From contig JBBTSX010000001.1 of NCBI GenBank assembly GCA_038064535.1, positions 1 to 63,744 on the forward strand: DNA of 63,744 bases, in the 5' to 3' direction. Source of the DNA: Patescibacteria group bacterium. GTDB lineage: Bacteria; Patescibacteriota; Minisyncoccia; Phycocordibacterales; UBA2100. The notes beneath the pieces were generated by a model that had not been told where the DNA came from, ran no database searches, and saw nothing but the letters and a program-made list of their open reading frames with translations. Numbering within the stretch: the first letter of the stretch is position 1; each line of letters opens with the position of its first letter. Positions 28,342-42,163 of this stretch are shown one piece after another. Both the position numbers and the translations under genes were made by a program.

Positions 28342-28743
28342 ATGGCACATATATCAAAGTTCAGGATGAAACCGGCATTATCGATACGCATCAAGAAAAA
28401 TTTGATGTCTGCTTCTACGCGTAACAGAGGTGTTATGTTGGAATGTTTACTCACGCCGACCGAAACAACAATGCTCGCGAAGCGCCTCGCCATGATTGTT
28501 ATGCTCGAGCGCGGTGATTCGAGCTACCACATCAGCAGGTCACTTCGCGTAAGCGATTCTTCGGTGCAACGATTCAGACGAATGCTTGATGCGGGATTAT
28601 TCAAGCCGGTGGTGAGAGAGCTTCGAAAGAAAAACCGTTCTCTCTTGGATGTGCTAGAGCTCATCCTGTCCGCGGGACTCCCCTCTATCGGCGGTCCGCG
28701 CTCGCAACGACGGCTTCAGAAAATGAGAGATGGGGCAATATAG
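28342..28743 (+). CDS. TrpR/YerC-YecD-like helix-turn-helix protein
   Basis: LLTPTETTMLAKRLAMIVMLERGDSSYHISRSLRVSDSSVQRFRRML resembles the Trp-repressor-like YerC/YecD family. Confidence 0.7.
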   Translation: MAHISKFRMKPALSIRIKKNLMSASTRNRGVMLECLLTPTETTMLAKRLAMIVMLERGDSSYHISRSLRVSDSSVQRFRRMLDAGLFKPVVRELRKKNRSLLDVLELILSAGLPSIGGPRSQRRLQKMRDGAI

Positions 28744-28761
28744 CGATATATCGCTATATTG
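28736..28761. repeat. perfect 26-bp palindrome CAATATAGCGATA|TATCGCTATATTG (family E copy 2)
   Basis: Overlaps the last codons and the TAG stop of CDS 28342..28743. Confidence 0.92.
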
Positions 28762-29420: not shown

Positions 29421-30314
29421 CTATACCTCCATCCCCTGCAATGCGGCAATTCTTTCTTCAACAGGCGGATGTGTGGAGAAAAGCTTTGATACCCAAGCGC
29501 CCGCCGGATGCGCGCCGAACGGGTTGGAGATAAAGAGATGCGCGGTCGTCGTCGAGGCGCGCGCCATCGGTGCACGGTACGAACTTATTTTCTGTAGAGC
29601 GGACGCCAACCCTTCGGGATAACGGGTGAGGAGCGCGCCCGAGGCGTCGGCGAGAAATTCGCGCTTGCGGGAAACGGCGAGCTGGATGAGTTGTGCCGCA
29701 AGCGGTGCCAAGATTATCGAAGCGACGAACGCAACAAGAATGAGCGGATTGTTATTGCCTTTGCGGTCGCCCCCGCCGAAGTGACTCATGTGTATCGCAA
29801 TGTTAGCGAGCACCGAAATAATGCCGACAAGCACGACCACGACCGTCATCACGAGAATGTCGCGGTTGCCGACGTGCGCGAGCTCGTGTGCAATGACGCC
29901 CTCAAGCTCGCTTCTGTCCATCATGGCGAGCAACCCGGTCGTCACGGCGATGACCGCATGCTCTTTGTCGCGCCCCGTCGCAAACGCGTTGGGCTGGGGG
30001 TCTTCTATTATGTAGACACGCGGTTTCGGCAGTCCCGCCGTGATGGCGAGGTTTTCAACGATGCGATGCAGTTCAATATATTGTGTCTCATCGGCTGGCT
30101 TTGCACCCACACTCGCGATAGCCACCTTGTCGGAAAACCAGTACGCACCGATGTTCATCGCAAAAGAAAACACGACGGCGACATACAGGATTGCCGGGTT
30201 GCCGTAGTACTGCGAGAAAACGAAACCTATCGCAACGATGAGCACGAGAAAAACGGTCATCAGGACCCACGTGCGAAAAACATTCTTGCTTTGTTGAGTG
30301 TATAAGGTAGCCAT
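29421..30314 (-). CDS. htpX: zinc metalloprotease HtpX (M48 family)
   Basis: HELAHVGNRD HExxH motif, 4 TM, C-terminal STHPPVEERI. Confidence 0.92.
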   Translation of the reverse strand: MATLYTQQSKNVFRTWVLMTVFLVLIVAIGFVFSQYYGNPAILYVAVVFSFAMNIGAYWFSDKVAIASVGAKPADETQYIELHRIVENLAITAGLPKPRVYIIEDPQPNAFATGRDKEHAVIAVTTGLLAMMDRSELEGVIAHELAHVGNRDILVMTVVVVLVGIISVLANIAIHMSHFGGGDRKGNNNPLILVAFVASIILAPLAAQLIQLAVSRKREFLADASGALLTRYPEGLASALQKISSYRAPMARASTTTAHLFISNPFGAHPAGAWVSKLFSTHPPVEERIAALQGMEV

Positions 30315-30332
30315 AAAAGTTGTAGACGTTGT

Positions 30333-30368
30333 AATCGTTCAAATCGTTCAAATCGTTCAAATCGTTCA
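30333..30368. repeat. tandem 9-mer AATCGTTCA x4
   Basis: Four exact head-to-tail copies between the htpX start and the upstream gene stop (the stop lies in the last unit). Confidence 0.9.
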
Positions 30369-30743
30369 AGACGAAGAACTCATCGATTTTCCGAGTGCTA
30401 CGAGCTTAAAGTACTCTTGTTCCAGAAGTTTTTCCAGTGGTGCGGTGTCAGCCACCTTCACGAAATTTTCCTGCAAAGCAACTTTGATGCAAGCGACACA
30501 CTCAAGTGTCGAAGACTTTGAGCGATGGACGTACACCGCAAATCCTTTCTTCGTCGGTTGCCCCGAATCCTCTGCAACGTTCAATACGATTGATGTTGCG
30601 GCTCTTCGCAACTGATCTGTCAGTGCGAATGTCTCGGTCTTGGGAAACAATCGAGTAACACGATATGTTTCGCGCACCACCTGCATCCCAATGTGCCAAA
30701 CGTCTAGTTCTTCGAAACGATACCTAACAAATTGTCCTGCCAT
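30366..30743 (-). CDS. four-helix-bundle protein (23S rRNA intervening-sequence protein family)
   Basis: FEELDVWHIGMQVVRETYRVTRLFPKTETFALTDQLRRAATSIVLNVAEDSG; TATAAT (30750..30755)-N6-ATG. Confidence 0.85.
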   Translation of the reverse strand: MAGQFVRYRFEELDVWHIGMQVVRETYRVTRLFPKTETFALTDQLRRAATSIVLNVAEDSGQPTKKGFAVYVHRSKSSTLECVACIKVALQENFVKVADTAPLEKLLEQEYFKLVALGKSMSSSS

Positions 30744-30775: not shown

Positions 30776-31336
30776 TTAGAACGTGACCTTGACGGCGTCT
30801 CGCGCCGCTTGGTCACCCTCCCCGAGTTGGAAGAAATCGCTCGATTTGAATCCGAATGCGCCGCCGATAAGATTGCTCGGGAATGACGCAAGCTTGGTAT
30901 TGAGTTCCATCACGACGCCGTTGTAGAAACGGCGCGCGGCCTGAATTTTGTTTTCGGTGTCCGAGAGCTCGCGCTGGAGCTCGACGAAATTCGCATTCGC
31001 TTTGAGGTCGGGGTAATTCTCAGAAACGGCAAAGAGTGATTTGAGCGCTCCCGTCAGCATATTTTCCGCGTCCGCTTTTTCCTCCGGTGCCGTGGCGTTC
31101 ATGGCGCGCGTGCGCATCTCGGTGACCTTCTGCAATGTCCCCGCTTCGTGCGCGGCGTAGCCTTTGACCGTCTCGACGAGATTGGGGATGAGGTCGTAGC
31201 GACGTTTCATCTGCACTTCGATATCCGACCATCCCTCTTTCACTCTATTGGTAAGCGTGACGAAGCCGTTGTACGCGGCAATAGCCCACACGATAAAGAC
31301 TGCGACAACCCCCAGAGCAATATATGTAAGTGACAT
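30776..31336 (-). CDS. lemA: LemA family protein
   Basis: N-terminal TM then NRVKEGWSDIEVQMKRRYDLIPNLVETVKGYAAHE. Confidence 0.9.
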   Translation of the reverse strand: MSLTYIALGVVAVFIVWAIAAYNGFVTLTNRVKEGWSDIEVQMKRRYDLIPNLVETVKGYAAHEAGTLQKVTEMRTRAMNATAPEEKADAENMLTGALKSLFAVSENYPDLKANANFVELQRELSDTENKIQAARRFYNGVVMELNTKLASFPSNLIGGAFGFKSSDFFQLGEGDQAARDAVKVTF

Positions 31337-31377: not shown

Positions 31378-34300
31378 CTACTTCTTGGGCGGAGTGGCCG
31401 TTACGATTACCCGCCTGCTCGCCTCGTTGTTTACTCTGCCCGAACTGTCGTAGATGGGATTCCGTGCCCCCATCGACGAAATGGTAATGCTTCCGAGAGG
31501 AATGCCGTAAAAGGTGGCGAGCGTTTGTTGAATTGTTTTCGCTCGCTCCAAGCCCAGAACATCGTTGTTGTTATTCCAACGGGAAGAAGGCGTATTGGGG
31601 TCCGTGTTGCCTTGGATGTTGAATGTATATCCTTTGTCGTACAGTTCCTTCATGGCCTTTCCCAGCGGCTCGACATCCGCGCGATTCGTGAGCGCCGCCG
31701 AATCAACTCTGAATTGAATACCAAGACTGACCGGCCGGCCCGCATCGCTGTTTTCTCCACCCCCGAGTCCGATGGCGATATCTTCTGCGGTAGGCCCGAC
31801 ACCTGTGCCGAGAACGGGCGACGCGACCACCGGTAGCGGAAGCTTACTCGCCTCCTCCGCCGCTTTCTTCGCCGCATTCTCGTCGGCAATCCGCTGTGCC
31901 TCGAGCCGTGCATTCAAATCCGTCTGTCTCCGTGCTATCTCGGCGTCTACCGCCTGCCGCTGCGCCTCCCACTGTCTGTCTCTCTCCTCTTGCTCCCGCT
32001 GATTCGCGAGACGTTGCGCCTCCACTCGCGCCGCCACCCGCTCCGCTTCCTCGGCCGCCCGCTGTCTTCTTTCCTGCAATTCATACTCGGGAGAACCGGG
32101 CTCCCCGGGCTTTGGTCCTCCCAAATTGACAGACTGGGGCGGCGCAGGTTGAGCGTCTTTGTTTTCCGTAAAGAGAGATTTCGGTGCTCCCGAATCCCCC
32201 GGAGGAATGATTACAGGAGATGCGAGCTTGGGAGCTTCTTCAACCGCCGGCGGAACAGACGAGCTCGCGGGCGCGGCGGGTGGCGTGATTTCTTGGGTGG
32301 CCGCGGGCGCCGCCGGTGCTTGGGGAGCGGCTGGTTCCTCCGGCACGGGCGGAGTGACGGGCGCCGGCGGAGCAACCGGAGCGGGCGGCTCCTCGACCGG
32401 CGTGGTCTTCGGTAACTGTGCTTCATGCTCCTTTTCGGAAGTGAGGTCGACAGTGAGCGTCTGCTCCTGTGGTGACGGTTTGGATGCGGTGCAAAACTCG
32501 ATACAAAAGACGACTCCGCCGACGACCGTCGTTCCGCCCAAGAGGCCTTTCATCGACATCTTTTCAACTTCCGGCTCAAGAATCTTCGGGCCGGCCGACA
32601 CGTCGAGGGAGCCGGAGCGCGCAACTTTCTCAGTCGCCGGTACAACGGCCGACGGCACCTCCGCGACCGGTGTCTCGACCGGAACTGCCGGCCTGCCCGC
32701 GGCTATGGCCCTCGCTTCCGCAACCGCACTGTCGAGCGCCGCTGTCGGGCCGGACGCGGGAGCGGTCCTTGCAGGCGCGTCAAAAATCGTTCCGGATTTC
32801 GGCATGCCTCCGAGGGTCTCCGGCGCTTTCGTCTCGACAACCGGATTTTTCATGAAATCTCTGATGGCATCCGTCGCTCTGTTGAATTGCGCGGCAGGAC
32901 CCGTCTCTGCGATAGGAGCGGCACCGGCGGATTCAATGTTCGCCGCGCGCGGAAGCCCTCCAGCACTCTCGACTCTTACCCCCGCGCTTGGCCATGGCCC
33001 CACTCCGGAGAGCGGCACCTCCCCTGCTCTTGTCACCCCTCCGAGTGCTCCCGCGCCGCTGTCGGCCATATCAGAACCGGCTGTTCGCGCACCCGCCATC
33101 CCGAACACCCCCGGTTCGCTCCGCACAATACCCGTCTCTCCCAATCCAAGCGCGTAATCAATCCCTTTGTTTGCGGTGGTGGTAATACCTTTAATCGGAC
33201 TAAACAGCGGTGAGACGATGAGGCCGTCAACGGTCGTTTCAACGATCGCACCGGTCGGGTCTATCTTTCTCCCCAACTCGCGGGAAAGGTCACCGGTAAA
33301 TCCGGGAACTACCCCTGTCATTTCCGCGAGATTGCGGGCACTCCCGAATACTGCTCCGCCGACGGAACCGAGAATACCCGGAACCCCCCATCCGATTGTC
33401 TTTCCGAGGTCCCCCACCGAATTGATTTCGCCCGGCATTTGTGATGAGGCGATTGCACCGGCCTCTTTTCCTTTATCTTCAATGACAGAAAAGAACTTTG
33501 ACAGTGTTCCCTCTTCCGTATTCTGGATGATACTTTTTATCTCGGGAGAAGGACCATTGAGCACGTAATCGGCGACTGCATGTTCGAGGTCCGCACGGCG
33601 GGTCGCCGCAATCTGGAGCGCATTTTCAGCGGTCGAAAGGACGGACGTCGGCACGCTCATGTCCGGGTCACTCAGGACCGGAGCACCGCCGATAAGGTTT
33701 TCGTATTTGTATCCGCTCCGCAGTTTATCGGCATAGGTCTGACATTCCGGACAATTCTCGACGGATTCCCCTGCATACGCTTGCAGCAAATTCGCCGCCC
33801 GTTGTGCACAAGGAATATCGCTTGACGGGCATGCGTCCCACACTGCAAACAAATATTGACTTCCCTGCGTATTCAGATTTCTCTCTTCGGGCGGCTTTGC
33901 GCTTTCTTCCGTTGCAAATCTAAATGCAGGCAGTGGTGCCGGCACGTTCGACGGCTGACCTTGCGGATTGCGCTCCTGCGAGTATGCAAGTATTCGCTCA
34001 GACACGGACGGGAGGTCGGTTTTCGCAACGGCAATGACCGGCACAGCGCGCTCGGAATCCGGCTGCGGCCCGTACGCTTCTTGCAGTGCTTTTTTCAGCG
34101 GAGCCGCATCGCCCTCGAAAATCGACCGGAGAGCTGCCGGACCGACTTTTAAAGAAGGGGGTACCGGGTCTCTCGTCGCGCCGACGCTTTCCGCCGCCCC
34201 CCTTCTCACCTCTTCCTCCGTCACCTGTTGTCTCTTTGCGTCGAACAGCCGAGTTTCGATGGATTTTAATTCAGCAGGGGTTCTGTCCATATCCGCGAAC

Positions 34301-35499
34301 GGTGGAGCCGACTGCGGAACAGGTGCCGCCGTACTCGGGCCGGTGGTTTTCGGCGAGTCGTTCGCCGCGACCTGCTGATTCGGTGCGGCCGGAATACTGT
34401 TTTCAGTTGAGGCGTTGGCGTTGGTGACGACTTTTACTTCGGCTCCGGTCACCGGTGTGACCTGTTGCGGCGACTGCTCGAACGAATTCAGAAAGGCAAT
34501 CGGAGCGGGCACGACGAATGGCTGTCGAGTGGTCTGATTCGCCCGTGCATTCGCCGCAATCACGTCCGCATCCGTTTGATTTGTTCCCGCCTGCGCAGAC
34601 GAGTCCCAGATGGAACCGCTGGCGAATGAATTCCGTATTTTCTGAAACCAGCACGACCACGCGCCGTCTGTGCATGTGGAAGTTTGAGTTCCGGTTTGTT
34701 CGGAGGAGCCGAATCCGCTCTGTGAGGAGAATTCGGAACCTTGCGGCGATTGCGGAGCGCCGAGTGCTTCGTTGACTTGAGAGACGGGATTGCCCAAGTC
34801 GGATACGGCGCCGGCCGGCGGGCCGAAGTAATTGTAATTTTGAGAAGCATTTGTCGACAAACCGGTAGCGCCGTTCGAATCACCCGAAGAACCGCCGGAC
34901 TGCCCCGCGGCGTTCAGGCTTTCGAGTTGCCCAGTAGTTGGGTTCACGATGTACTGCCCGTCCAATGGTTTTGCGGCGTTTGCATCAAAGGCTGCGGTGA
35001 TTTGTTGTGCGGTAAGTTGCGACGACACGGATTGCCATGGTGCATTCGCTCCGGTCCCCGCAGTAGAAGGTTGCGCGATAGCGGCGCCCGGGACTGTACC
35101 GGCGGTAGAGAAATATTTCTTGAGATACTCCGACTCTGCGACCGATACCTTCTTACAATTCCCCTGTCTCTTACAGTCAGGATAATTATCAATATACGTC
35201 TCTATGTGACACTTCAGTTTGGCGTAGCAATGACCTTCGAGAAAAGATTTCCCCGCAGTGGTCTCTTCGCATGGTTTGTCCAACATGCACAATTCACCTT
35301 TTGAATTCTTCGCAGTGCCGTTCTTATAAGTGCATTTCCAGTCGACGGGCACGTCCTTGCCGGCATCGCACATGGCGTTCGCCGGATCTTTGGCCGGGTC
35401 CTTTGCTGGAGTTGTTACCTGCGCGTATGAGAGGGAGAAGAACGCGAGACTCAAAAAGACCGACAAGAAAAGAGTAGTCGCTGTGCGACTGCGGTACAT
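31378..35499 (-). CDS. giant secreted protein 1 (1373 aa) with coiled-coil and C-terminal OmpA/MotB-like peptidoglycan-binding domain
   Basis: Signal peptide MYRSRTATTLFLSVFLSLAFFSLSYAQ; Cys-rich N-domain; long low-complexity P/A/G/S regions; OmpA-like tail (31381..31752: IQGNTDPNTPSSRWNNNNDVLGLERAKTIQQTL...ASRRVIV). Confidence 0.85.
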   Translation of the reverse strand: MYRSRTATTLFLSVFLSLAFFSLSYAQVTTPAKDPAKDPANAMCDAGKDVPVDWKCTYKNGTAKNSKGELCMLDKPCEETTAGKSFLEGHCYAKLKCHIETYIDNYPDCKRQGNCKKVSVAESEYLKKYFSTAGTVPGAAIAQPSTAGTGANAPWQSVSSQLTAQQITAAFDANAAKPLDGQYIVNPTTGQLESLNAAGQSGGSSGDSNGATGLSTNASQNYNYFGPPAGAVSDLGNPVSQVNEALGAPQSPQGSEFSSQSGFGSSEQTGTQTSTCTDGAWSCWFQKIRNSFASGSIWDSSAQAGTNQTDADVIAANARANQTTRQPFVVPAPIAFLNSFEQSPQQVTPVTGAEVKVVTNANASTENSIPAAPNQQVAANDSPKTTGPSTAAPVPQSAPPFADMDRTPAELKSIETRLFDAKRQQVTEEEVRRGAAESVGATRDPVPPSLKVGPAALRSIFEGDAAPLKKALQEAYGPQPDSERAVPVIAVAKTDLPSVSERILAYSQERNPQGQPSNVPAPLPAFRFATEESAKPPEERNLNTQGSQYLFAVWDACPSSDIPCAQRAANLLQAYAGESVENCPECQTYADKLRSGYKYENLIGGAPVLSDPDMSVPTSVLSTAENALQIAATRRADLEHAVADYVLNGPSPEIKSIIQNTEEGTLSKFFSVIEDKGKEAGAIASSQMPGEINSVGDLGKTIGWGVPGILGSVGGAVFGSARNLAEMTGVVPGFTGDLSRELGRKIDPTGAIVETTVDGLIVSPLFSPIKGITTTANKGIDYALGLGETGIVRSEPGVFGMAGARTAGSDMADSGAGALGGVTRAGEVPLSGVGPWPSAGVRVESAGGLPRAANIESAGAAPIAETGPAAQFNRATDAIRDFMKNPVVETKAPETLGGMPKSGTIFDAPARTAPASGPTAALDSAVAEARAIAAGRPAVPVETPVAEVPSAVVPATEKVARSGSLDVSAGPKILEPEVEKMSMKGLLGGTTVVGGVVFCIEFCTASKPSPQEQTLTVDLTSEKEHEAQLPKTTPVEEPPAPVAPPAPVTPPVPEEPAAPQAPAAPAATQEITPPAAPASSSVPPAVEEAPKLASPVIIPPGDSGAPKSLFTENKDAQPAPPQSVNLGGPKPGEPGSPEYELQERRQRAAEEAERVAARVEAQRLANQREQEERDRQWEAQRQAVDAEIARRQTDLNARLEAQRIADENAAKKAAEEASKLPLPVVASPVLGTGVGPTAEDIAIGLGGGENSDAGRPVSLGIQFRVDSAALTNRADVEPLGKAMKELYDKGYTFNIQGNTDPNTPSSRWNNNNDVLGLERAKTIQQTLATFYGIPLGSITISSMGARNPIYDSSGRVNNEASRRVIVTATPPKK

Positions 35500-35505
35500 G
35501 ACTCT

Positions 35506-35511
35506 ATTGTA
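35506..35511 (-). promoter_or_regulatory. -10 box TACAAT, 6 nt upstream of the giant-1 ATG (leaderless geometry)
   Basis: Same TACAAT-N6-ATG arrangement at giant 2 (41499..41504); the surrounding intergenic sequence is conserved between the two loci. Confidence 0.55.
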
Positions 35512-35565
35512 CCAGCGCGGCGGCGGTGTGCCGTAAATTACGGCTCATTTCGTGTATATAACGGA

Positions 35566-35609
35566 GATATCCCCAAGGGCTTGCTTTTTTCTTGGTTGTG
35601 TGGTATCAT
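35566..35609 (+). promoter_or_regulatory. conserved promoter module 1: box GATATCCCCAAGGGC, -35 TTGCTT, 17 nt, -10 TATCAT
   Basis: Same box, -35 and spacing at 35963..36006 and 41559..41602. Confidence 0.65.
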
Positions 35610-35659
35610 CCCATCTAGCTTAATTGGAGCTGGCCAATCATGGCCACAGAGAGGACGAC

Positions 35660-35833
35660 ATGAAAAAACTTATGCTCGCTGCCGTGGCTCTGGTTGCGCT
35701 TGCGTCTCCGGCGTTCGCCTTCGCGAACGATGGGACGCCACAGTCCGCTGCCATGACCACGACGACGCCCGCGTCTCCGGCGTCCGCCCCCGTGAACGAC
35801 GGCACGCCCCCAAGTTCCTCTACCAATCGCTAA
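35660..35833 (+). CDS. small secreted peptide 1 (57 aa)
   Basis: MKKLMLAAVALVALASPAFA signal peptide; mature part has two NDGTP repeats and is Thr/Pro/Ser-rich; AGAGAGGA region upstream of the ATG; terminator downstream. Confidence 0.6.
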   Translation: MKKLMLAAVALVALASPAFAFANDGTPQSAAMTTTTPASPASAPVNDGTPPSSSTNR

Positions 35834-35845
35834 GCGATTGCTCTG

Positions 35846-35885
35846 CCGGTCATTTGCCTCGCGCAAATGACCGGACTGCTTTTTG
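35846..35885 (+). terminator. intrinsic terminator
   Basis: CCGGTCATTTGC-ctcgc-GCAAATGACCGG followed by ACTGCTTTTT; stem homologous to the 36362 terminator. Confidence 0.75.
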
Positions 35886-35962
35886 ATGCCGGTCCTTTCG
35901 GGCGGTTGGGGAATAACAACAATACGGCTCAAATTCAAGCTATTTTCATGCTCATATCGTAG

Positions 35963-36006
35963 GATATCCACAGGGGCTTGCTTTTTACACGATTATGTGG
36001 TACGAT
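35963..36006 (+). promoter_or_regulatory. conserved promoter module 2: box GATATCCACAGGGGC, -35 TTGCTT, 17 nt, -10 TACGAT
   Basis: See module 1; downstream 5' UTR contains the identical 21-nt GGAGCTGGCCAATCATGGCCA. Confidence 0.65.
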
Positions 36007-36052
36007 GTCCCCCAGTTGTTAGGAGCTGGCCAATCATGGCCAAGGAGGACAA

Positions 36053-36346
36053 ATGAAACACATCGTTCTCGTTGCTTTGGCCATGATGGGATTCACCGCC
36101 GTGGCCAATGCGCTGAGTCTCGAGAAGTACGAGATAATCTTTCAGCCGCTGGGGCTGGAACGTGCAGTGAAGGTCAACGGCATGGACTGCCTTATGACCA
36201 CGCCGTACGACACGCACGCGCGATGCGGCACTGAACGGGTCAACCTTAAGCGCTGTGAATTTCCGGCGTTCGAGGGTGGAAGCCTTGTTTGTCATCTCGC
36301 CCCCCCGTGGCCGCCCACTGCTCCAACCCACAACATCCGCCGCTAA
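36053..36346 (+). CDS. small secreted Cys-containing protein 2 (97 aa)
   Basis: AAGGAGG-N5-ATG; signal peptide MKHIVLVALAMMGFTAVANA; 4 Cys in the mature part. Confidence 0.6.
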   Translation: MKHIVLVALAMMGFTAVANALSLEKYEIIFQPLGLERAVKVNGMDCLMTTPYDTHARCGTERVNLKRCEFPAFEGGSLVCHLAPPWPPTAPTHNIRR

Positions 36347-36361
36347 CCGGCGCATGTGTTA

Positions 36362-36399
36362 CCGGTCGTTTGCTCACGCAAACGATCGGTATTGCTTTT
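36362..36399 (+). terminator. intrinsic terminator
   Basis: CCGGTCGTTTGC-tcac-GCAAACGATCGG followed by TATTGCTTTT. Confidence 0.75.
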
Positions 36400-36452
36400 C
36401 ATATATGCAACAAACGGTGTTCCCTCTTTCAGACAGTGCTAGTATGTATCAT

Positions 36453-36743
36453 ATGGTAGAGAAATGGAGCAGACGCGATGTGTTGAAACGTGCGGTCGTT
36501 GCAGGAGCCGCACTCACTTTGGGGGCACGCGAAGGTGTCGCAAAGCAAAGCCCGTCCAACGACATGCCTGCCGTAACAGAGTCATCTGTCAAAGACCGGG
36601 AGGAAATTCAGGAATTGGATAGAATAAACCGTGAGATGCAGGATGCGATTAAAAAAGGAGATTTGGAGAAAATACGGAGACTGACCGATGACCTCGAGAA
36701 TCACCTCAAGCGACTAATGGAACGCGAGGGTAAACCCCGTTAG
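36453..36743 (+). CDS. small Tat-signal protein with coiled-coil C-terminus (96 aa)
   Basis: TAGTAT (36440..36445)-N7-ATG 36453; MVEKWSRRDVLKRAVVAGAALTLGA twin-arginine signal; last two codons and the stop come from repeat A7. Confidence 0.6.
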   Translation: MVEKWSRRDVLKRAVVAGAALTLGAREGVAKQSPSNDMPAVTESSVKDREEIQELDRINREMQDAIKKGDLEKIRRLTDDLENHLKRLMEREGKPR

Positions 36744-36833
36744 AAGCTCACGCGGGGTATTGAACCCCACGTTCGCATAATTGATTTGACATTCCTCCGC
36801 GGCAAGCCGCGGGGCATTCTGCTTCTAACGGGG
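36735..36833. repeat. family A foldback element copy A7
   Basis: CCCCGTTAGAAGC (36735..36747) / GCTTCTAACGGGG (36821..36833); direct repeat GGTAAA at 36729..36734 and 36832..36837. Confidence 0.85.
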
Positions 36834-36848
36834 TAAATGAGTTTGCGC

Positions 36849-39800
36849 TCACCGCCGTATCCATATGCCTCGAAGTCTGGCCAAGCCCGCCTCGAGCTTT
36901 GGGCTGCTGCGCAACCTTTCCATTGCAACGTTCTCAATATACGCTCGACCAACCCATCCCCTAGTAGGGTCATTGAGCGCCTCATTGATACCGGTCTGAA
37001 CTTGATTGCGGGCGGTATTGATGCGTGCTATCGAAGTGTTGACTTGGTCAATCGAACTCTGAATTTTATCGGCGAGTTTCTTGTCGCCCGCATCCAATGC
37101 CGCCTGTTTCGCTTCTTGAAGCACAGGTCTTGAATCTTTCAGCGATTCCAGCACATCGTTCCCTGCGCTCTTAAAACTGCTGAGGGTTGAGTCTGGATTC
37201 TTCAGAACTTTCTCCAGTTGGTCGGTGTTGTCTCTCACGTCTTGAAGTGCCGCGTGAGCATTGCCGACGGCCTCTTGTTTTTTTGCTTCCGTTACTTCAG
37301 GTCGGGGCTGAGGAAGCGGGATTGCCTCTCCCTCCCCGATTGCGGTTGCGGCGGTAGTTTCTTTTGCCGGTGCGCTATCGGCGGCAACCTGCGACGACGC
37401 GCCTTCACCGGCAGTTTCACTGGCAAACGACCGCGCCGCTTGATCGTTGGCGACATTTTCTGTGATTTGCTTGTCTGACAAGAGCAGGTCTTTCGGCTCA
37501 AACTGATTCAGATACGAGAGGTCCGCCACAGACAAATCCGGCTCTTTGGCTTCCGGCGCTTCTACATTCGCTACTTCATCGCCGAATGTGCGGGCGGCCT
37601 GATCATTTACAATATCTGTAGCCACTTGTTCATGCGACACGAGAAGGTCTTTTGGTGCCGCATCGTCGAGATATGCAAGATTCTTATCCGGAATTATTGT
37701 CTCCGTCGGAATCGCAGGATTCAGAGAATCGGGCGGAGCCTGATTGTAGGCTCCTACAGCGAGGTCCTGCGGAGAAGTCGCCTCTTTTACCTGCGCCTCA
37801 ATATCTTTGCCGCTTTCTGCGGTGAAGATTTTCGGATCCCATAGCGGCACCGGAATGCGTTCTTCTATTGGAATTACTTTTTCCGTTTCTTTTTCCGGTG
37901 CAAAAGTAGACGCGGCCTGTTCAATCGGGTTGCCGTTGCCGTCTATATCCTGCGGGCGCGGCGTCGGTAGCGGCACTTCCGGAGCCGACGGCGTTATGAG
38001 CGCCGCGTCTCTCCCCGTGCCGCCCAACTCCTTTTCGAGCCCGCCGGACGCGACGTAGTTATTGCTTCCGCTCCTCGTGTAATCCGTGACCGGAACATTT
38101 TCTACCGTCCTATCACCCACCTGCACGTTCACCTTGTCACCGATTTTGAGACCCTGCGGATTGTCGCGCGGCACAGCGATGCCCTGCATGTCTCCGGCAA
38201 GCGGAGTGCCTCCCGCCGCGGAGCTCCTGCTGTCTGCTCCGCACACACCTCCCCCTCCTTGGCAGCCGAGTGCGACCAGCTTCTGCCCGCCGGAATCATA
38301 CGGATTACCTCTGTTTTCTTCGATGGAATTCCACGGTTTGGCGTCTGGATTCGCGAGGCGTTCGAGCGGCGGCTGTTGTGCGGCTTCTTGCACGGATGCG
38401 GCTGTCGGCGCACCTTCCGGTCGTGCGGGCGGGAGCGGAACTGTTTCTTGAATGGGTTGCAAGCGATTGTCCGAACCGGCATTGGCGGCAATGATGTCCG
38501 CTGTCTTGCCCCCGCCGGATTCCGCCGCCGGAATACTCAACGGTCGTTCCGGTGGAAGCCGCACATCAGTTACGGTTATCTCCGGCCGCGGCGGAGGGAG
38601 CCGCACCTCATCAACGGGTGTATCTGTACCCGATGGCGGCACGTCACTGATTTTCGTTTCTCCGGGTATTGATACCGTCGGTGCAGGTGCCACATCGGTC
38701 CGAAGCGCATCGTTGGACGGGTATTCAAGTGCAAGATTGCCGACAATATTCGGCTCGGGCCAGTCTTTGGAGTCAATGGTATTGAATGCCTGTTGAGCAG
38801 CAATACTGGCATTTTCCTGTGCGCTCATCGCCGTGTTTCCTTCCCAACCGTTTGCGAAAGCGTTGAACGCCGCATTGTCGGTCATAATCTGGTTTTGCCC
38901 AGAAGATACGGCGGCACCACCCTCCCACCCTCCGGCAAATGAGTTGACAGCCGCGTTCTCGGCAAGCGTTTGATTTTGTCCCGTGGACAACGCGGCACCG
39001 TTTTCCCAACCGCCGCCAAATGCGTTGATTGCCTGATTCTGGAAGCCCTGTTCCGCAACTGCAAGATTCCCACTACTTTCACCGTACATATCGTACGGGC
39101 TGTTGGTGCCGGTCCACCCGCCGTTCATCTTCGTACTGGTGTCGACCACATCGCCGCCGTAATAACTCGCATTTTGGAGCGGCTGCTGGTCGATGTACGA
39201 TCCCGCTGGTCGCGCCGAATAGGGCAAATCATTACTGCCCCCGACATTGTCGACCGGTCTCGTCTGTGTAATCTCCGCATTTCCCGAATCCGGCAAACCG
39301 GAGTATTGCGTATACGTCTGATAACGCTCATTCAGGAACGGCTGGTTGCTCGCAAGTCTCATCGCTTCGGCGTCGGAGTTCGCGAAGCCGGTTGCAATGT
39401 CAAGCTTGTCAGGTCTTCCGACGAAATCACTCCCGGTGTCATGGATGTAGACCGGAACGTTCTCGAGCGTGTACTGTTTGCCATCAATTGCACTCCTGTA
39501 CGTGATACTAGGAATTTCGTATGTTTGGCCCATTCGTTTGGTAAGGTCGGACGCACCGGTCACATATTCTGATTCCCCGCGCCTATAATTATCGAGTGTC
39601 CGAACGAGCCTTTCGCCATCGAGCCCGGGTCGCGCGCTTTCACGACCGCCCTGCATCGGACACGCGCTTGCGCTCGGACACGGCAGATAGGCAGTCACAT
39701 CAAATTTCGTCTCCCCTATTGCCTTTACCGATATGACTCCTTCCCGCTCTTTTGAAGCATCCGGCTTCATCTCTCCTTGAATATCTCTCGGGGGTTCTTT

Positions 39801-41492
39801 CGACAATGTCTCCTCAGGTCCTTTAGGTAATTCCTTGGTCGATATCTTGCTCCAATCAATCTCCGTCGAAGCGTCTGATTTATTCGGATTATCCAATGCC
39901 GCGTTTTCCGCAAAACCGGTGGCGGGCCGGGCCGGCAGTGAACCGGGGCTGACCGACTCTGCAATGAGCGGCGGCGTAGCCGTTATGGCGTTGCCGTTTG
40001 CGTCGACTGGTGGCGCGGATGCATCTTCTGCCAGTCGCTCCGGCGTCGGCCCGAATGCAACATAGGGAGACTCCGCGTCGATGTTCACCGCGCATGCAAT
40101 GTTTGTGCACGCGGATGATCCGTTTACCCACCAGTCATTTGCCCCACTTACGACGGTACCGAAGTTTGATTGCCCCTCCCCCTTGCTCACCCAATCGCCG
40201 GAAAGATCAGCCGCAATCGGGATTACACTCTTGACGGTCGCACCTGTCTCGAACACAACCGGTTGTCCCGTCGCGTTCACGATATCTTGCGCCGTGATGC
40301 TGTTTGGATTCTCGGGAGCAGTCTGCAACGAGGCGGGCTCCTGACCCACCTGCCCGGGAGCAAAGTTCGCGGCTATTTGATTCGCCGCGTTGTACGGATA
40401 CAGAAGCGGAGTGTTTGCAAGCGACCCGTTCGCCGGAGCCGTCCAGCTGGTGGATATGGGTGGGGTGAATACGCCAGCGTTTGCTATTTCGTTGCCCAGC
40501 AGTGGGGCCAGAGCGGTCGGTATTGTAGGGCTAGTGGGCATCTGAATCGCCCATGGGTCTGAAGCGCTCGGTGCAAACGGAATGGGGGCTACTGTGTTGC
40601 CGGCGGTTGGAAACGGTGTGACGGGGCCGGAAGACGGATTAAGTGCCAGACCTTGTGTGGAGAGCGGATTAAACCCGGTCGTCGGGGCAACCGATGGTGA
40701 ATATGGCGTACCGGGATAATACCCATTGCCGGCATTGAGTGACTCGAGTCCCTGCGGAGCACCGCTCGACTGCGGGAACATTGACGAAGTATTACTCATG
40801 CCGAGATAATCAGAATTGAATGACGACACTGGGTTCAGTGTCTGTTCCAAAATGGACTGCCCCGGTTGGAATCCGGAATACCCATACCCTCCGAGTGAGT
40901 TTTCCGGGGTAATTCCGTACTGCTGGCTGAGCATATTATTAATATCCCCACCAGATGTATCCGGCGCATTTGCTGTGCCGGGAATGGTCTGAAATTCTTC
41001 GGTGCCGTTCTTAAACGCATTATCTATCTGCTCGGGCGTCTTCTGCTCCACGGGTTTCCACGGTGCATTCTCGCCCGTTTGATTGGGAGTACCTCCCGCA
41101 CCTGTCGTATCACCGGCCGGTATTTCCGGCTTTTTGACGTCTCCCGCATATTTACAATCATCTTGCGCGTGGCACTTGCCCGGCACCGTGCCCGACACGT
41201 CCGGTACAGTGGTCGGACATGACTTCCCGTATAGGTTGGTGATTGTCCTGAACGTCTTGAGCGTATTGTCCCATTCCTGCCATTGCTTCCCTTTCGTCGC
41301 GTCGTACTTATTGTTCCTGTCCGGAGCGGGACAGTCTTTATTAGCATTATTGACCGATGGTCCCGATGAAAACCCGGAACCACTGGACCCTCCCGGCATT
41401 GATAAAACCGTCTGCGCATGCGTCAGTGAAACAAATGCGAGACTCAAAAAGGCCGATAGGACAAAAGTAGTCGCTATGCGACTCCGGTACAT
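36849..41492 (-). CDS. giant secreted protein 2 (1547 aa) with 3D-like and DPBB-like putative peptidoglycan-lytic domains
   Basis: Signal peptide MYRSRIATTFVLSAFLSLAFVSLTHAQ; N-domain homologous to giant 1; 3D-like region (39378..39701: TAYLPCPSASACP...VPVYIHDTGSDFVGRPDKLDIAT); DPBB-like region (38013..38270); internal tandem repeats. Confidence 0.85.
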   Translation of the reverse strand: MYRSRIATTFVLSAFLSLAFVSLTHAQTVLSMPGGSSGSGFSSGPSVNNANKDCPAPDRNNKYDATKGKQWQEWDNTLKTFRTITNLYGKSCPTTVPDVSGTVPGKCHAQDDCKYAGDVKKPEIPAGDTTGAGGTPNQTGENAPWKPVEQKTPEQIDNAFKNGTEEFQTIPGTANAPDTSGGDINNMLSQQYGITPENSLGGYGYSGFQPGQSILEQTLNPVSSFNSDYLGMSNTSSMFPQSSGAPQGLESLNAGNGYYPGTPYSPSVAPTTGFNPLSTQGLALNPSSGPVTPFPTAGNTVAPIPFAPSASDPWAIQMPTSPTIPTALAPLLGNEIANAGVFTPPISTSWTAPANGSLANTPLLYPYNAANQIAANFAPGQVGQEPASLQTAPENPNSITAQDIVNATGQPVVFETGATVKSVIPIAADLSGDWVSKGEGQSNFGTVVSGANDWWVNGSSACTNIACAVNIDAESPYVAFGPTPERLAEDASAPPVDANGNAITATPPLIAESVSPGSLPARPATGFAENAALDNPNKSDASTEIDWSKISTKELPKGPEETLSKEPPRDIQGEMKPDASKEREGVISVKAIGETKFDVTAYLPCPSASACPMQGGRESARPGLDGERLVRTLDNYRRGESEYVTGASDLTKRMGQTYEIPSITYRSAIDGKQYTLENVPVYIHDTGSDFVGRPDKLDIATGFANSDAEAMRLASNQPFLNERYQTYTQYSGLPDSGNAEITQTRPVDNVGGSNDLPYSARPAGSYIDQQPLQNASYYGGDVVDTSTKMNGGWTGTNSPYDMYGESSGNLAVAEQGFQNQAINAFGGGWENGAALSTGQNQTLAENAAVNSFAGGWEGGAAVSSGQNQIMTDNAAFNAFANGWEGNTAMSAQENASIAAQQAFNTIDSKDWPEPNIVGNLALEYPSNDALRTDVAPAPTVSIPGETKISDVPPSGTDTPVDEVRLPPPRPEITVTDVRLPPERPLSIPAAESGGGKTADIIAANAGSDNRLQPIQETVPLPPARPEGAPTAASVQEAAQQPPLERLANPDAKPWNSIEENRGNPYDSGGQKLVALGCQGGGGVCGADSRSSAAGGTPLAGDMQGIAVPRDNPQGLKIGDKVNVQVGDRTVENVPVTDYTRSGSNNYVASGGLEKELGGTGRDAALITPSAPEVPLPTPRPQDIDGNGNPIEQAASTFAPEKETEKVIPIEERIPVPLWDPKIFTAESGKDIEAQVKEATSPQDLAVGAYNQAPPDSLNPAIPTETIIPDKNLAYLDDAAPKDLLVSHEQVATDIVNDQAARTFGDEVANVEAPEAKEPDLSVADLSYLNQFEPKDLLLSDKQITENVANDQAARSFASETAGEGASSQVAADSAPAKETTAATAIGEGEAIPLPQPRPEVTEAKKQEAVGNAHAALQDVRDNTDQLEKVLKNPDSTLSSFKSAGNDVLESLKDSRPVLQEAKQAALDAGDKKLADKIQSSIDQVNTSIARINTARNQVQTGINEALNDPTRGWVGRAYIENVAMERLRSSPKLEAGLARLRGIWIRR

Positions 41493-41498
41493 TGTCCC

Positions 41499-41504
41499 AT
41501 TGTA
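41499..41504 (-). promoter_or_regulatory. -10 box TACAAT, 6 nt upstream of the giant-2 ATG (leaderless geometry)
   Basis: Mirrors 35506..35511. Confidence 0.55.
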
Positions 41505-41558
41505 GCAGTACGGCGGCCGTGTAGTGCAAATTGCGGCCCATTTAGTGTATATAACTGG

Positions 41559-41602
41559 GATATCCCCACGGGCTTGCTTTTCCGACAGTTATGTGTTAGT
41601 AT
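41559..41602 (+). promoter_or_regulatory. conserved promoter module 3: box GATATCCCCACGGGC, -35 TTGCTT, 17 nt, -10 TAGTAT
   Basis: Third copy of the module. Confidence 0.65.
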
Positions 41603-41645
41603 TAAACGAGTGACCCTGGGCCATTTCGGCCTCAAGGAGGGAGTC

Positions 41646-41924
41646 ATGAAAAAGACCGTTCTTGCAGTCGTGCTCGCTGTATTGGCGCTGGGGTTTACCG
41701 TCCCGGCAAATGCTCAGTCGGCTCAGGAGCTGACGGCGTTCCAACACATTCGCTCGCTCGATGTGCAAACGTTCGTAGCGCGTCAGGCGCAGGCCGAAGC
41801 GTGCACATGGACCCCGACGCAGGCGAAATACTTCGAGTGCCTGCAGTCGTACAACCGCAGCATCGCGCAGTTGCAGCAAGAAGCTGCAATCGCAATCGCC
41901 AAGGACATCGCCGGCAAGAAGTAG
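41646..41924 (+). CDS. small secreted protein 3 (92 aa)
   Basis: AAGGAGGG-N5-ATG; signal peptide MKKTVLAVVLAVLALGFTVPANA; 2 Cys; helical mature part. Confidence 0.6.
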   Translation: MKKTVLAVVLAVLALGFTVPANAQSAQELTAFQHIRSLDVQTFVARQAQAEACTWTPTQAKYFECLQSYNRSIAQLQQEAAIAIAKDIAGKK

Positions 41925-41935
41925 TCGGAGCATCA

Positions 41936-41975
41936 CTGGTCACTCGCACCTCGCGGGTGACCAGCTCTCTTTTTT
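41936..41975 (+). terminator. intrinsic terminator
   Basis: CTGGTCAC-tcgcacctcgcgg-GTGACCAG followed by CTCTCTTTTTT. Confidence 0.7.
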
Positions 41976-42036: not shown

Positions 42037-42163
42037 GCGCAGATTTCGCACCAAAAGCGAGTGCGGATATTACTTTTACCGTCTTCGTAGGCCCGACGGG
42101 GCCGAGATTGAGCGCTGGCGCAGTAGCGCCAGATAGCGACGGCAAAAGTAATGCCCGCCGAGC
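42037..42163. repeat. family B structured ~125-nt element, copy 2
   Basis: Homologous to 12861..12990; outer stem 42068..42082 / 42138..42152; inner hairpins GGCCC-gacg-GGGCC and CTGGCGC-agta-GCGCCAG; ends 2 nt from the groEL stop. Confidence 0.85.

Follow-up and report, generated by a model that had tools for sequence, protein, structure and literature searches.

Shared Promoter and Secretion Signals Flank Dissimilar Mature Regions in Three Small Paralogous Genes of a Candidatus Kaiserbacteria Genome

The present study indicates that three small secreted-protein modules in a groundwater bacterium (Ca. Kaiserbacteria, CPR; Hainich groundwater) are copies of one ancestral shell of expression and secretion signals, the middles of which have been refilled. 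Specifically, within the 63,744-nt stretch of DNA that was analyzed (the window, 63.7 kb), modules m1 (35566..35885), m2 (35963..36399), and m3 (41559..41975) all lie on the + strand in one 6-kb neighborhood, and each begins with a conserved promoter block that is a probable site for a sequence-specific protein. We assign this joint account, paralogous shells with refilled middles and a protein-binding block, a probability of about 0.55. The genes neighboring the modules encode LemA, an M48 peptidase, GroES/EL, and SecG.

Results

Architecture of the Modules

Each module opens with a 15-nt, G+C-rich box that directly abuts a −35-like hexamer. In module 1, the box GATATCCCCAAGGGC (35566-35580) is followed by TTGCTT (35581-35586) and TT, giving a block at 35566..35588 that was defined by exact pattern match and alignment; exact pattern matches define the corresponding blocks of module 2 (box GATATCCACAGGGGC, 35963-35977; TTGCTT, 35978-35983; block with TT, 35963..35985) and module 3 (box GATATCCCCACGGGC, 41559-41573; TTGCTT, 41574-41579; block with TT, 41559..41581), all on the + strand. 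The 23-nt consensus, GATATCC-[A/C]-C-[A/T]-N-GGGC-TTGCTTTT, covers about −50 to −28. Exact matches to GATATCCNCANGGGCTTGCTTTT occur in the window solely at 35566, 35963, and 41559 on the + strand, with 0 expected by chance; box plus TTGCTTTT gave 0 matches in 100 shuffles of the window, and no further such site was found in the 63.7 kb on either strand, even with 3 mismatches. The only symmetric elements of the block are the GATATC hexamer and a weak CC-N5-GG, with no consistent repeat across copies and no clear dyad or direct-repeat symmetry of the kind typical of dimeric regulators. Two other identities were tried and rejected: a role of GATATC in restriction-modification (17 observed against 21 expected, a sign of neither avoidance nor enrichment) and the block as a MITE or IS terminal repeat (all copies on the + strand and no reverse-strand match up to 3 mismatches). 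Further upstream of the box, m1 and m3 carry A/T tracts spaced ~10-11 bp apart.

TTGCTT matches TTGACA at 3/6 positions, and a standard promoter scan does not call the m1–m3 promoters. The hexamer lies exactly 17 nt from the −10 in every copy compared. The −10 hexamers (TATCAT, TACGAT, or TAGTAT) are each preceded by TGn and by TRTG and so constitute extended −10 elements (TGnTAnnAT), which the preliminary description had not mentioned: TGGTATCAT at 35601..35609 in module 1, 17 nt past TTGCTT, TGGTACGAT at 35998..36006 in module 2, and TGTTAGTAT at 41594..41602 in module 3, all on the + strand. TGn preceding TAnnnT is found in these three and in all 13 copies compared. Transcription starts, as deduced from promoter sequence, are predicted near 35616, 36013, and 41609, respectively. 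No TTG −35 accompanies the remaining extended −10 promoters of the window.

The leader of each module, ~45 nt long, contains a GGCC-type hairpin and a strong Shine–Dalgarno (SD) sequence. In module 1 the hairpin TGGCCA-ATCA-TGGCCA (35631..35646, + strand; z −1.5) is followed by the SD GAGAGGA at about 35649-35655; the same hairpin in module 2 (36027..36042, + strand) is adjoined by AGGAGG at 36043-36048; and in module 3 the hairpin is GGGCC-ATTTC-GGCCT (41618..41632, + strand), followed by AGGAGGG at 41635-41641. These hairpins are thermodynamically modest (z −1.1 to −2.2), and their stems are kept between orthologs while loop sequence and length vary, as in L054, where the m2 stem is kept with a 5-nt loop, and in L007, L050, and L052, where the m3 stem is kept with varying loops. 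Each module ends in a strong intrinsic terminator on the + strand (12-14 bp stems, −23 to −25 kcal/mol, T-runs): a 12-bp stem in module 1 (CCGGTCATTTGC, 35846..35885, z −5.0), a 14-bp stem in module 2 (CCGGTCGTTTGC, 36360..36399, z −4.4), and a 12-bp stem in module 3 (CTGGTCACTCGC, 41936..41975, z −6.5).

Pattern matching and alignment thus bear out the preliminary description in its account of three modules with box, TTGCTT, 17-nt spacing, and the −10 hexamers given above. The 21-nt leader stretch that it reported for m1 and m2, GGAGCTGGCCAATCATGGCCA, is identical between the two, and the terminator stems that it regarded as homologous between m1 and m2 are strong (z −4.4 to −6.5) and belong to a stem family that also includes m3.

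Three Signal Peptides and Three Mature Regions

Module 1 encodes a 57-aa protein with a Sec-type signal peptide and a TP-rich tail (35660..35833, + strand; homologs P0009 and L028). Module 2 encodes a 97-aa protein with a signal peptide and a 4-Cys β domain (36053..36346, + strand), a member of an unnamed ~90-aa secreted family, and module 3 encodes a 92-aa protein with a signal peptide and, in the predicted fold, a two-helix hairpin (41646..41924, + strand), the turn of which is bracketed by a Cys pair (C-x11-C). The signal peptides MKKLMLAAVALVALASPAFA, MKHIVLVALAMMGFTAVANA, and MKKTVLAVVLAVLALGFTVPANA, assigned by inspection of sequence, have the basic n-region (K/R), the hydrophobic h-region, and the AxA of SPase I substrates, with no lipobox Cys; the earlier claim that all three products carry signal peptides therefore stands. 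Values of dN/dS over the three ORFs are 0.18-0.60 (m1, 0.25; m2, 0.18-0.36; m3, 0.28-0.57), compared with 0.10 for GroEL, and by this measure all three ORFs are coding and under purifying selection.

Profile comparison (hhalign) among m1–m3 aligned the signal peptides, at 93% probability for m2 and m3, but not the mature parts, even with a 16-sequence m2 profile. The AlphaFold models, of moderate confidence (pLDDT 62 and 72), differ as well, with a β domain for m2 and a two-helix hairpin for m3. Within the limits of shallow profiles (2-16 sequences), the mature payloads are undetectably related, and the dissimilarity first noted by eye is upheld by both approaches. Profile comparison lent no support to a C-x11-C "TTP/TPT" loop that m2 and m3 seemed to share, and the large repeat proteins P0017, P0021, P0023, and P0024, which emerged from a profile search, were inspected and dismissed as repeat noise. 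Pfam and NCBIfam returned no match for m1, m2, m3, or any of the 16 m2-family members, and Foldseek found no match in the PDB better than E 1.5.

The m1 payload can be traced within the window. Positions 35746-35808 are an in-frame tandem copy of the signal-peptide region at 35677-35739; the self-match (46/63 nt, 0/300 shuffles) is present in three orthologs, including those in L054 and L028. In the two distant relatives whose context was read, the m2-type 4-Cys family adjoins lemA. Judged from these sequences, m2 looks like the module that carries the ancestral payload, and m1 is a module that lost the 4-Cys domain and was refilled with an in-frame, 69-nt duplicate of its own signal-peptide region. 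For the m2 and m3 payloads, no donor sequences were found in the window or in related loci, and the window holds no second copy of any mature region.

A fourth small exported ORF (96 aa, twin-arginine signal; 36453..36743, + strand), conserved in L007, L028, and L054, falls outside the module family: it has no box, appears to be leaderless, and has TGCTAGTAT at 36437-36445.

Conservation of the Promoter Block Across Species

At dS 0.5-1.3, orthologs that retain the full box match it at 12-15/15 positions, the −35-like hexamer at 6/6, and the extended −10 at 7-9/9; in the same comparison, the spacer matches at 7-12/14 and the leader is replaceable (21/46). The m2 box is 15/15 in four lineages at dS 0.7-1.3 and the m3 box 12-14/15, with changes in the adjacent noncoding bases, and the module 3 block is conserved in L007, L050, and L051. 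Across the m2 family, matches to the box fall off gradually as distance increases. In these alignments the 23-nt block proves more tightly constrained than are the −10 hexamer, the spacer, and the leader, and because the box and the −35-like hexamer are near constant while spacers and leaders drift, the block appears to be functional. The box is conserved above the neutral rate, in a fixed position relative to the promoter and with varying flanks, which favors its earlier designation as a candidate operator.

The box is not indispensable, because the m1 orthologs in L028, L024, and L054 and the m3 ortholog in L052 have lost its left half with their ORFs intact; these orthologs still carry CTTGCTTTT and an extended −10. 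The block itself was never found apart from CTTGCTTTT plus an extended −10, and in the CPR genomes of GTDB it was never paired with another −35 hexamer.

Duplication History of the Locus

Two of the modules lie opposite divergently transcribed giant genes on the − strand. The partner of m1 encodes a 1373-aa secreted protein with a C-terminal OmpA-like peptidoglycan-binding domain (31378..35499), and the partner of m3 encodes a 1547-aa secreted protein (36849..41492) with an ortholog in L007; the two are paralogous over about their first 250 aa (30% identity, E 1e-12). The shared control region between giant 1 and m1 (35500..35565) contains a conserved A/T-phased stretch (AAATT..ATTT..TATATAAC) and the giant-1 extended −10, TGGTACAAT, at 35514-35506 on the minus strand, 6 nt before the ATG. 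The paralogous region between giant 2 and m3 (41493..41558) contains the giant-2 extended −10, TGCTACAAT, at 41507-41499 on the minus strand.

Module homology begins ~60 nt upstream of the box. A 187-nt repeat shared by m1 and m3 (76% identity to 41412-41598) runs into the divergent giants at their start codon and signal peptide, a 40-nt repeat is present in three copies, and the 3′ ends and terminators of the modules are homologous. On this homology, m1, m2, and m3 are paralogs that arose by local duplication, of a giant-plus-small unit for m1/m3 and in tandem for m1/m2. The preliminary description had named a single recent segmental duplication as a finding that would refute its reading; local duplication did give rise to the three sites, but the duplications are old rather than recent, because the payloads are unalignable and the giants share 30% identity.

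The locus has continued to change. L007 has lost m1 and m2, with half a terminator left as a scar, and a mosaic allele (P0006/L024) combines the block and the C terminus with another leader and signal peptide. In the H51/H52 strains, m1 and m3 have both undergone the same upstream replacement; the alternative upstream sequence "X" (…CTTTAATTCAAG) of these strains is absent from the window and was seen only at the ends of contigs with 3-5x coverage. Contigs assembled from DNA in four runs revealed no structural variation around the modules, and no RNA run was found to cover the region. The mosaic alleles suggest that recombination and gene conversion between copies and strains help keep the module ends alike. 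Control-region similarity between paralogs (76-82%) is about equal to that between orthologs, and gene conversion cannot be separated from plain constraint on this similarity.

Occurrence of the Block Elsewhere

Beyond the three copies described here, one copy of the block is present in the sister genome and two single copies occur elsewhere in the GTDB and JGI collections. The latter lie on two distant low-GC contigs, L005, labeled Patescibacteria, and L035, of unverified lineage, and have an identical block and the 17-nt spacing. Downstream of the L005 copy are a cytoplasmic DksA/TraR-type gene and ftsH, not a gene for a secreted protein; the L035 copy is upstream of a gene for a small exported protein, and the L035 contig has, in addition, a canonical TTGACA-N17-TAGTAT. 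Scans relaxed to allow any central bases in the box, or any −35 beside it, added no CPR sites, and a general CPR promoter element was rejected. A match in L022 (Yanofskybacteria) proved not to be a homologous box but a terminator stem that overlaps a TTGCTT promoter, and other non-CPR matches were about as frequent as chance predicts for a pattern of this length. A regulon would have several unlinked sites; the 64-kb window has three that are linked and paralogous, the sister genome has one, and within this coverage the block does not mark a broad regulon.

Discussion

A Shared Shell and a Predicted Binding Site

Collectively, these comparisons show that a shell consisting of promoter block, extended −10, ~45-nt leader with hairpin and strong SD, Sec signal peptide, last codons, and terminator was copied at least twice, once together with a divergent giant gene and once in tandem. 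The ends of the copies stayed alike while the middles came to hold a 4-Cys β domain (m2), a self-duplicate (m1), and a helical hairpin (m3). Conserved expression signals around a variable payload, as first described, are thus a real arrangement in the module alignments and profile comparisons. The block is probably one predicted binding site for a sequence-specific protein, overlapping the −35 position as do the sites of class II activators or of −35-overlapping repressors, and it may place m1–m3 under a common control that is set apart from the ordinary promoters of the genome, which look −35 independent and leaderless. It is probably not simply a strong core promoter, given that TTGCTT matches the consensus at 3/6 positions and that a TTG −35 is missing from the window's other extended −10 promoters. 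The leader hairpin beside the SD probably serves to keep the SD exposed or to stabilize the mRNA.

The same block might instead be read by RNA polymerase alone, as an unusually complete core promoter in which the −35 and an upstream contact for σ region 4 or the α C-terminal domain of the Patescibacteria polymerase would keep expression constitutively high; a dedicated regulator would then play no part, and the three genes would have the block in common by descent. A canonical TRTGnTAnnAT −10 at a constant 17-nt distance in every copy, the unfailing coupling of block and promoter, and the strong SD and terminators, which suit high-output genes, are all consistent with this explanation, as is the recurrence of an identical block in distant contigs of very different base composition (L005 and L035), as expected of a conserved polymerase. 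A domain scan of the neighboring ORFs revealed no candidate regulator gene near the locus, and it would be unusual for a regulator to have one to three targets per genome, which counts against a dedicated regulator. However, TTGCTT is poor relative to the near-universal TTGACA and yet invariant, L035 has a canonical TTGACA promoter of its own, the G+C-rich box is unlike known UP elements, and the other promoters of the window have no such element. Moreover, a polymerase optimum would be expected at ribosomal and other highly expressed genes, whereas the block is extremely rare (about one per genome). We consider recognition by polymerase alone unlikely, though a serious alternative to a dedicated binding protein.

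The clustering of three paralogous copies in one 6-kb neighborhood, the parallel replacement upstream of m1 and m3 in H51/H52, and the lack of the 21-nt m1/m2 leader in the L054 m1 ortholog, which suggests conversion, could be taken to mean that the flanks are alike merely as a consequence of recent duplication or of gene conversion that still goes on, and that the box has no function of its own. This is scarcely credible: the duplications are old, with unalignable payloads, and gene conversion within a genome cannot explain box conservation between species (15/15 for m2 and 12-14/15 for m3 at dS 0.7-1.3), so that the proposal is largely refuted. Equally little credence can be given to the box as a recombination site at which payloads are exchanged, as in integron cassettes or site-specific shuffling. 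Homology breakpoints do fall in or beside the box in L052, L028, and L024, the locus gains and loses modules, and mosaic alleles are present; but the breakpoints lie where low-coverage contigs end and could stem from the assembly, and ordinary homologous recombination, with conserved flanks as anchors, would yield a mosaic patch like that in L024. A scan of ORFs to about 15 kb on either side of the modules revealed no integrase or recombinase, no inverted copy of the block was found on either strand, and, in contrast to integron cassettes, each unit is supplied with a promoter of its own. The original proposal, in which the box serves as operator for a wider regulon of exported effectors in this organism, draws on the signal peptides of all three local targets and on the small exported protein downstream of the L035 copy. 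It is very doubtful in view of the three sites in the 64-kb window and the single copy in the sister genome, to which GTDB and JGI add only two unrelated single copies, and of the DksA/TraR-type gene, rather than one for a secreted protein, that follows the L005 copy; no effector-like domain or fold was found with Pfam, NCBIfam, or Foldseek. The preliminary observation is confirmed and its interpretation partly supported.

Relation to Known Systems

By analogy, the closest counterparts of the modules would be the erp genes of Borrelia, with their upstream homology box (UHB), and the vsp/vpma genes of Mycoplasma, in that promoter, 5′ UTR, and signal peptide are homologous while the mature parts, as far as shallow profiles can tell, are not. 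The erp genes of Borrelia burgdorferi (ospE/ospF/elp) likewise have a conserved promoter/operator, a leader peptide, and a common location, join these to exposed-protein parts of diverse, unrelated origin that recombine, and are coexpressed via proteins that bind beside the promoter (BpaB, BpuR, and EbfC). There is no sequence relationship between the two systems, however, and erp genes encode lipoproteins and occur in many copies on prophage plasmids, in contrast to three chromosomal copies with SPase-I-type signals here; the conserved terminator and leader hairpin are additional features of the present modules. Like the modules, the Mycoplasma vsp/vpma/vlp genes are clustered in one locus of a reduced-genome, host-dependent bacterium, and in them the 5′ UTR and signal-peptide region are highly conserved while the remaining coding sequence lacks significant homology (PMC2268961). 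Those genes encode repeat-rich lipoproteins and switch by site-specific inversion or promoter repeats, whereas the modules show no recombinase, no inversion signal, and no repeats except the internal duplication in m1.

In σ70 promoters with class II activators or −35-overlapping repressors, a protein-sized site abuts or overlaps the −35, which is weak. The block, at about −50 to −28 with a weak −35 and an extended −10, resembles these promoters, a likeness known here from sequence, but differs in having no dyad symmetry. UP elements (rrn P1) share with the modules the conservation of promoter-proximal upstream DNA together with the core, and m1 and m3 have A/T tracts; unlike UP elements, the 15-nt box is G+C rich and lies directly against the −35 rather than at −40 to −60. 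A row of small, unrelated ORFs between repeated flanks is superficially like an integron array, but integron cassettes are promoterless and depend on attC and an integrase, whereas these units have their own promoter and terminator and no attC; this identity was rejected, there being no inverted or imperfect-palindrome flank common to the modules and no intI integrase among the ORFs scanned. A diversity-generating retroelement was likewise rejected: the window has no second copy of a mature region, and the scanned ORFs, which span about 20.7-50.9 kb, include no reverse transcriptase.

Implications

Almost nothing is known of transcription control in the CPR because most of its members are uncultured, and our literature search found no specific study of CPR promoters or leaderless mRNA. 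The locus described here offers a short, sharply defined cis-element under clear selection, which could serve as a probe for a CPR regulator or polymerase specificity. The block is kept letter for letter in lineages with genomes of 40 to 56% G+C. In a bolder and rather improbable version, it would be the target of an unrecognized, Patescibacteria-wide DNA-binding factor or polymerase-associated specificity, with the shell acting, in this Kaiserbacteria clade, as a portable launch pad for new secreted proteins. Only three genes in a narrow clade are involved, and Borrelia and Mycoplasma already provide instances of the general phenomenon; the modules are thus a useful example rather than a new principle. 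Nevertheless, they make the copying and refilling of a shell visible in a very small genome, with the origin of one payload, that of m1, traceable to its own signal peptide, and thereby bear on how secreted and surface proteins may diversify in host-dependent bacteria.

Results

Organization of the locus

Contigs identical to the window come from Hainich groundwater wells, and Candidatus Kaiserbacteria RIFCSPHIGHO2_02_FULL_55_25 has a syntenic contig carrying GroEL, an ortholog of the small secreted-protein gene m3, and a giant gene. This synteny, together with the housekeeping character of the window's neighboring genes (GroES/EL, SecG, a solute-binding protein, RNase J, ribonucleotide reductase, LemA, and an M48 peptidase), places the locus on the chromosome of a candidate-phyla-radiation (CPR) bacterium. 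The gene order is giant-1 (31378..35499, −); m1 (module at 35566-35885), m2 (35963-36399), and a fourth small ORF, which bears a twin-arginine signal (all +); giant-2 (36849..41492, −); m3 (41559-41975, +); and GroEL. The two giant secreted-protein genes are paralogous over approximately their first 250 residues, and giant-1 ends C-terminally in an OmpA-like peptidoglycan-binding domain. The lemA gene lies just past giant-1 (30776-31336, −).

The 23-nt pattern GATATCCNCANGGGCTTGCTTTT, consisting of a 15-nt box, TTGCTT, and TT (the block), matches the 63.7-kb window at 35566, 35963, and 41559, each time on the + strand; no further match with three or fewer mismatches occurs there, and none was obtained in 100 shuffles. 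All three copies have TTGCTT followed after exactly 17 nt by TATCAT, TACGAT, or TAGTAT, and the spacer ends in TGn preceded by TRTG, making the predicted −10s of the extended form. TTGCTT itself matches the usual −35 at 3/6 positions. Each module has a leader of ~45 nt with a GGCC-based hairpin directly 5′ of a strong Shine-Dalgarno (SD) sequence; taken alone, the hairpin is statistically unremarkable (z −1.1 to −2.2), and among orthologs its stem is kept while the loop differs in sequence and length. The intrinsic terminators are strong (12-14 bp stems, z −4.4 to −6.5) and form one stem family with compensatory changes between members. The preliminary description was accurate, both in its layout of box, TTGCTT, 17-nt spacer, and −10 and in its account of the hairpins, SD sequences, signal peptides, and terminators; the extended form of the −10 and the 3/6 match of TTGCTT are additions to it. 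The similarity is also wider than it had recognized. In each of the modules it already begins ~60 nt 5′ of the box, and between m1 and m3 it spans 187 nt and reaches into the divergent giant genes, taking in their start and signal peptide. A history of shell duplication, the shell being the block, extended −10, leader hairpin and SD, signal peptide, and terminator, is very probable for the three modules.

Other extended −10 promoters identified by sequence scan in the window are without a TTG-type −35, and many lie 6-7 nt 5′ of an ATG, a position that would imply leaderless mRNAs. TGnTAnnAT at this distance, with neither an SD nor a TTG-type −35, is found at 6358-6375, 20683-20701, and 36437-36455 on the + strand and at 35514-35497, 41507-41490, 62980-62963, and 10131-10114 on the − strand; this set includes both giant genes and the twin-arginine ORF. 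The pattern suggests that this Kaiserbacterium commonly makes leaderless mRNAs from extended −10 promoters of a −35-independent kind.

Small genes and their payloads

The ORFs encode 57 (m1), 97 (m2), and 92 (m3) amino acids, each opening with a Sec-type signal peptide, and each has a few orthologs in closely related groundwater genomes. They are coding and fast-evolving, with dN/dS of 0.18-0.60 versus 0.10 for GroEL in the same species pair. Profile-profile comparison aligned the signal peptides alone, even with a 16-sequence m2 profile (m2-m3, 93% probability over 26 columns, all signal peptide; m2-m1, 62%), and the AlphaFold models show m2 as a beta domain of six strands and m3 as a two-helix hairpin, consistent with the earlier claim that the mature parts are unrelated.

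A full HMMER search places m2 in a wider unnamed family of secreted proteins of 84-109 aa, in which four cysteines are invariant and the motif GLERAV..G..C.MTTPYD..A.C recurs. Two distant members (L083:1-171(−) and L085:1-228(−)) are divergent to lemA; their extended −10 is of the same type, a hairpin precedes their SD, and their terminator is CCGGTCG...CGACCGG. Given these shared features, the payload of m2 is most likely the one that the shell had originally. The arrangement in the window looks like an insertion of giant-1 that separated lemA from the small gene.

In m1 the mature part consists of a tandem copy, in frame and 69 nt long, of the gene's own signal-peptide region (LAAVALVALASPAFAFANDGTP -> SAAMTTTTPASPASAPVNDGTP), matching at 46/63 nt, a value reached by 0/300 shuffles, and the copy is present in 3/3 orthologs. 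This copying accounts for the two NDGTP repeats reported previously. Because the last codons and terminator of m1 also align with those of m2, m1 is an m2-type unit whose domain was lost and then replaced with material from its own shell. A search for the source of the m3 payload found none. The label "effector" given to these proteins finds no support: no m2-family member matches Pfam, and the m2 and m3 models gave no significant match among solved structures.

Constraint, exchange, and distribution

Between ortholog pairs with a full box, at a synonymous divergence of 0.5 to 1.3 (pS about 0.4-0.6), identity is 12-15/15 for the box (15/15 in all three m2 lineages), 6/6 for TTGCTT, 7-9/9 for the extended −10, and 7-12/14 for the remaining spacer bases; the leader is replaceable outright (21/46 in the L024 allele). 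Among m2 orthologs the bases immediately 5′ of the box vary and the box is constant. In more distant members of the m2 family the box is progressively eroded, to cGTATCCACAGctAC in L085 and to a weaker remnant in L083, as descent under constraint predicts. No block without CTTGCTTTT and a correctly spaced extended −10 was found among the CPR sequences compared, and no additional CPR site emerged when all of GTDB was scanned for the box followed by any −35 hexamer. Collectively, these comparisons indicate that the promoter block is under selection. The left half of the box is dispensable for gene retention, as some m1 and m3 orthologs show: m1 orthologs in L028, L024, and L054 and the m3 ortholog in L052 keep CTTGCTTTT and the extended −10 with GATATCC replaced.

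The m2 allele from Hainich well H52 (P0006) keeps the block and C-terminal half but differs in spacer, leader, and signal peptide. Comparison of L024:470-700 with L028:470-700 shows identity to the H51 allele in the upstream sequence, box, and −35, which resumes in the C-terminal half and terminator, with a divergent patch of ~250 nt between these identical stretches; the patch is best read as recombination anchored in conserved flanks. The window's m1 and m2 share an identical 21-nt leader that the m1 ortholog in L054 lacks, which suggests conversion between these neighbors. The conserved ends of the modules probably double as homology anchors for exchange, besides acting as expression signals. 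The locus loses modules as well as gaining them: the sister Kaiserbacteria genome (L007) has a single block copy, at m3, and no m1 or m2. Between giant-1 and the twin-arginine gene (L007:293-345) it retains the 3′ half of a module-type terminator (AATGACCGATGTCTCTTTTT), a deletion scar.

Scans of GTDB and JGI metagenomes found two further promoters only with an identical block, 17-nt spacing, and TGnTAnnnT. One, from a Patescibacterium of the same well (L005/L046, 40% G+C), precedes a DksA/TraR-type gene and ftsH; the other, on a Rifle aquifer contig (L035, 41% G+C) that also has a canonical TTGACA-N17-TAGTAT promoter, precedes a gene for a 143-aa exported protein between pyrF and tuf. Roughly nine distinct matches lie outside Kaiserbacteria, and for two of them to have an extended −10 in the correct place is well beyond chance (~1e-4, a rough estimate); the two are genuine relatives or convergent copies of the block. 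In Ca. Yanofskybacteria (L022:7235-7295), a terminator hairpin overlaps compactly with the extended −10 promoter of the following gene: its descending arm and T-run (GAGCAAGCCCCGCC...GGCGGGGCTTGCTTTTT) also supply that promoter's TTGCTT −35.

Other repeats in the window

A ~100-nt repeat has one copy in the interval from the m3 terminator to the groEL 3′ end (42062-42160) and another beside tRNA-Gly (12886-12983), with an 89% identical core, a related stretch at L007:5790-5830, and pieces in several other contigs of the same samples, making it multi-copy. Its predicted fold is a three-way junction, a long outer stem round two small hairpins (−55 and −73 kcal/mol; z −5.6 and −7.6), with compensatory outer-stem changes between the window copies; Rfam gave no match, and the repeat is a candidate small RNA or REP/MITE-like element. 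The interval from the twin-arginine ORF to the giant-2 end contains a short hairpin, CTCCGCGGCAAGCCGCGGGG (36797-36838), that is also present in many unrelated contigs from the same metagenomes, at depths to ~96x versus 10x, and is a widespread short repeat or shared terminator. Two 39-nt near-perfect palindromes (GTACATTTTAACAAGCCGGTCGGCTTGTTAAAATGTAC; 49572-49610 and 54164-54202; 90% alike) have TGTTAAAAT or TGTTATAAT on each strand. Their possible roles are as paired extended −10 promoters placed back to back, as a common operator, or as a terminator working in both directions. Arrays of a 9-nt unit (CGTTCAAAT / CGTTGTAAA) lie at two places 21 kb apart. One (30314-30373) abuts the opposite-strand M48 peptidase ORF at its start codon (30314); the other (8909-8950) falls in a stretch with listed ORFs on both strands. 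The arrays may be iteron-like or may contain binding sites. A perfect 26-nt palindrome (CAATATAGCGATATATCGCTATATTG) occurs in two identical copies 425 nt apart (28311-28336 and 28736-28761), just past tRNA-Ser and near a T5orf172/MUG113 (GIY-YIG-like) homing-endonuclease-type ORF (27367-28089); the copies may be small mobile element ends or paired operators.

Discussion

The block may be a single protein-binding site overlapping the −35 position, a tentative reading to which we assign a probability of roughly 45%. It is favored because the −35 is invariant, nonconsensus, and fused to a conserved box in a host whose polymerase seems not to need a −35. The block might instead be read by polymerase alone, with no dedicated regulator; we consider this less likely. 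The copies in L005/L046 and L035 argue for a trans-acting reader common across Patescibacteria (L005 is so labeled), and against both a link to secretion as such and a large regulon. The interpretation originally offered is partly upheld: the cis-element, which is under selection, and the shell-and-payload architecture are both real; the three sites are paralogs at one locus and not a dispersed regulon.

The closest precedents are the Borrelia erp genes, in which a conserved promoter/operator (the "upstream homology box") and leader peptide precede unrelated mature parts of many origins (PMC10016077), and the Mycoplasma vsp/vpma genes, with highly conserved 5′ UTRs and signal-peptide regions and no homology further on (PMC2268961). 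These are functional analogues, unrelated by descent. The present locus differs from them in phylum, in its smaller scale (three chromosomal genes), in conserving the terminator and leader hairpin as well, in its pairing with giant surface-protein genes, in its new cis-element, and in having one payload of traceable origin. Readings of the locus as an integron, a DGR, or a MITE were rejected, as the defining features of each fail. The locus thus offers a sharply conserved promoter block in an uncultured phylum whose transcription control is essentially unknown and, in m1, a small example of the birth of a secreted gene from a signal peptide.
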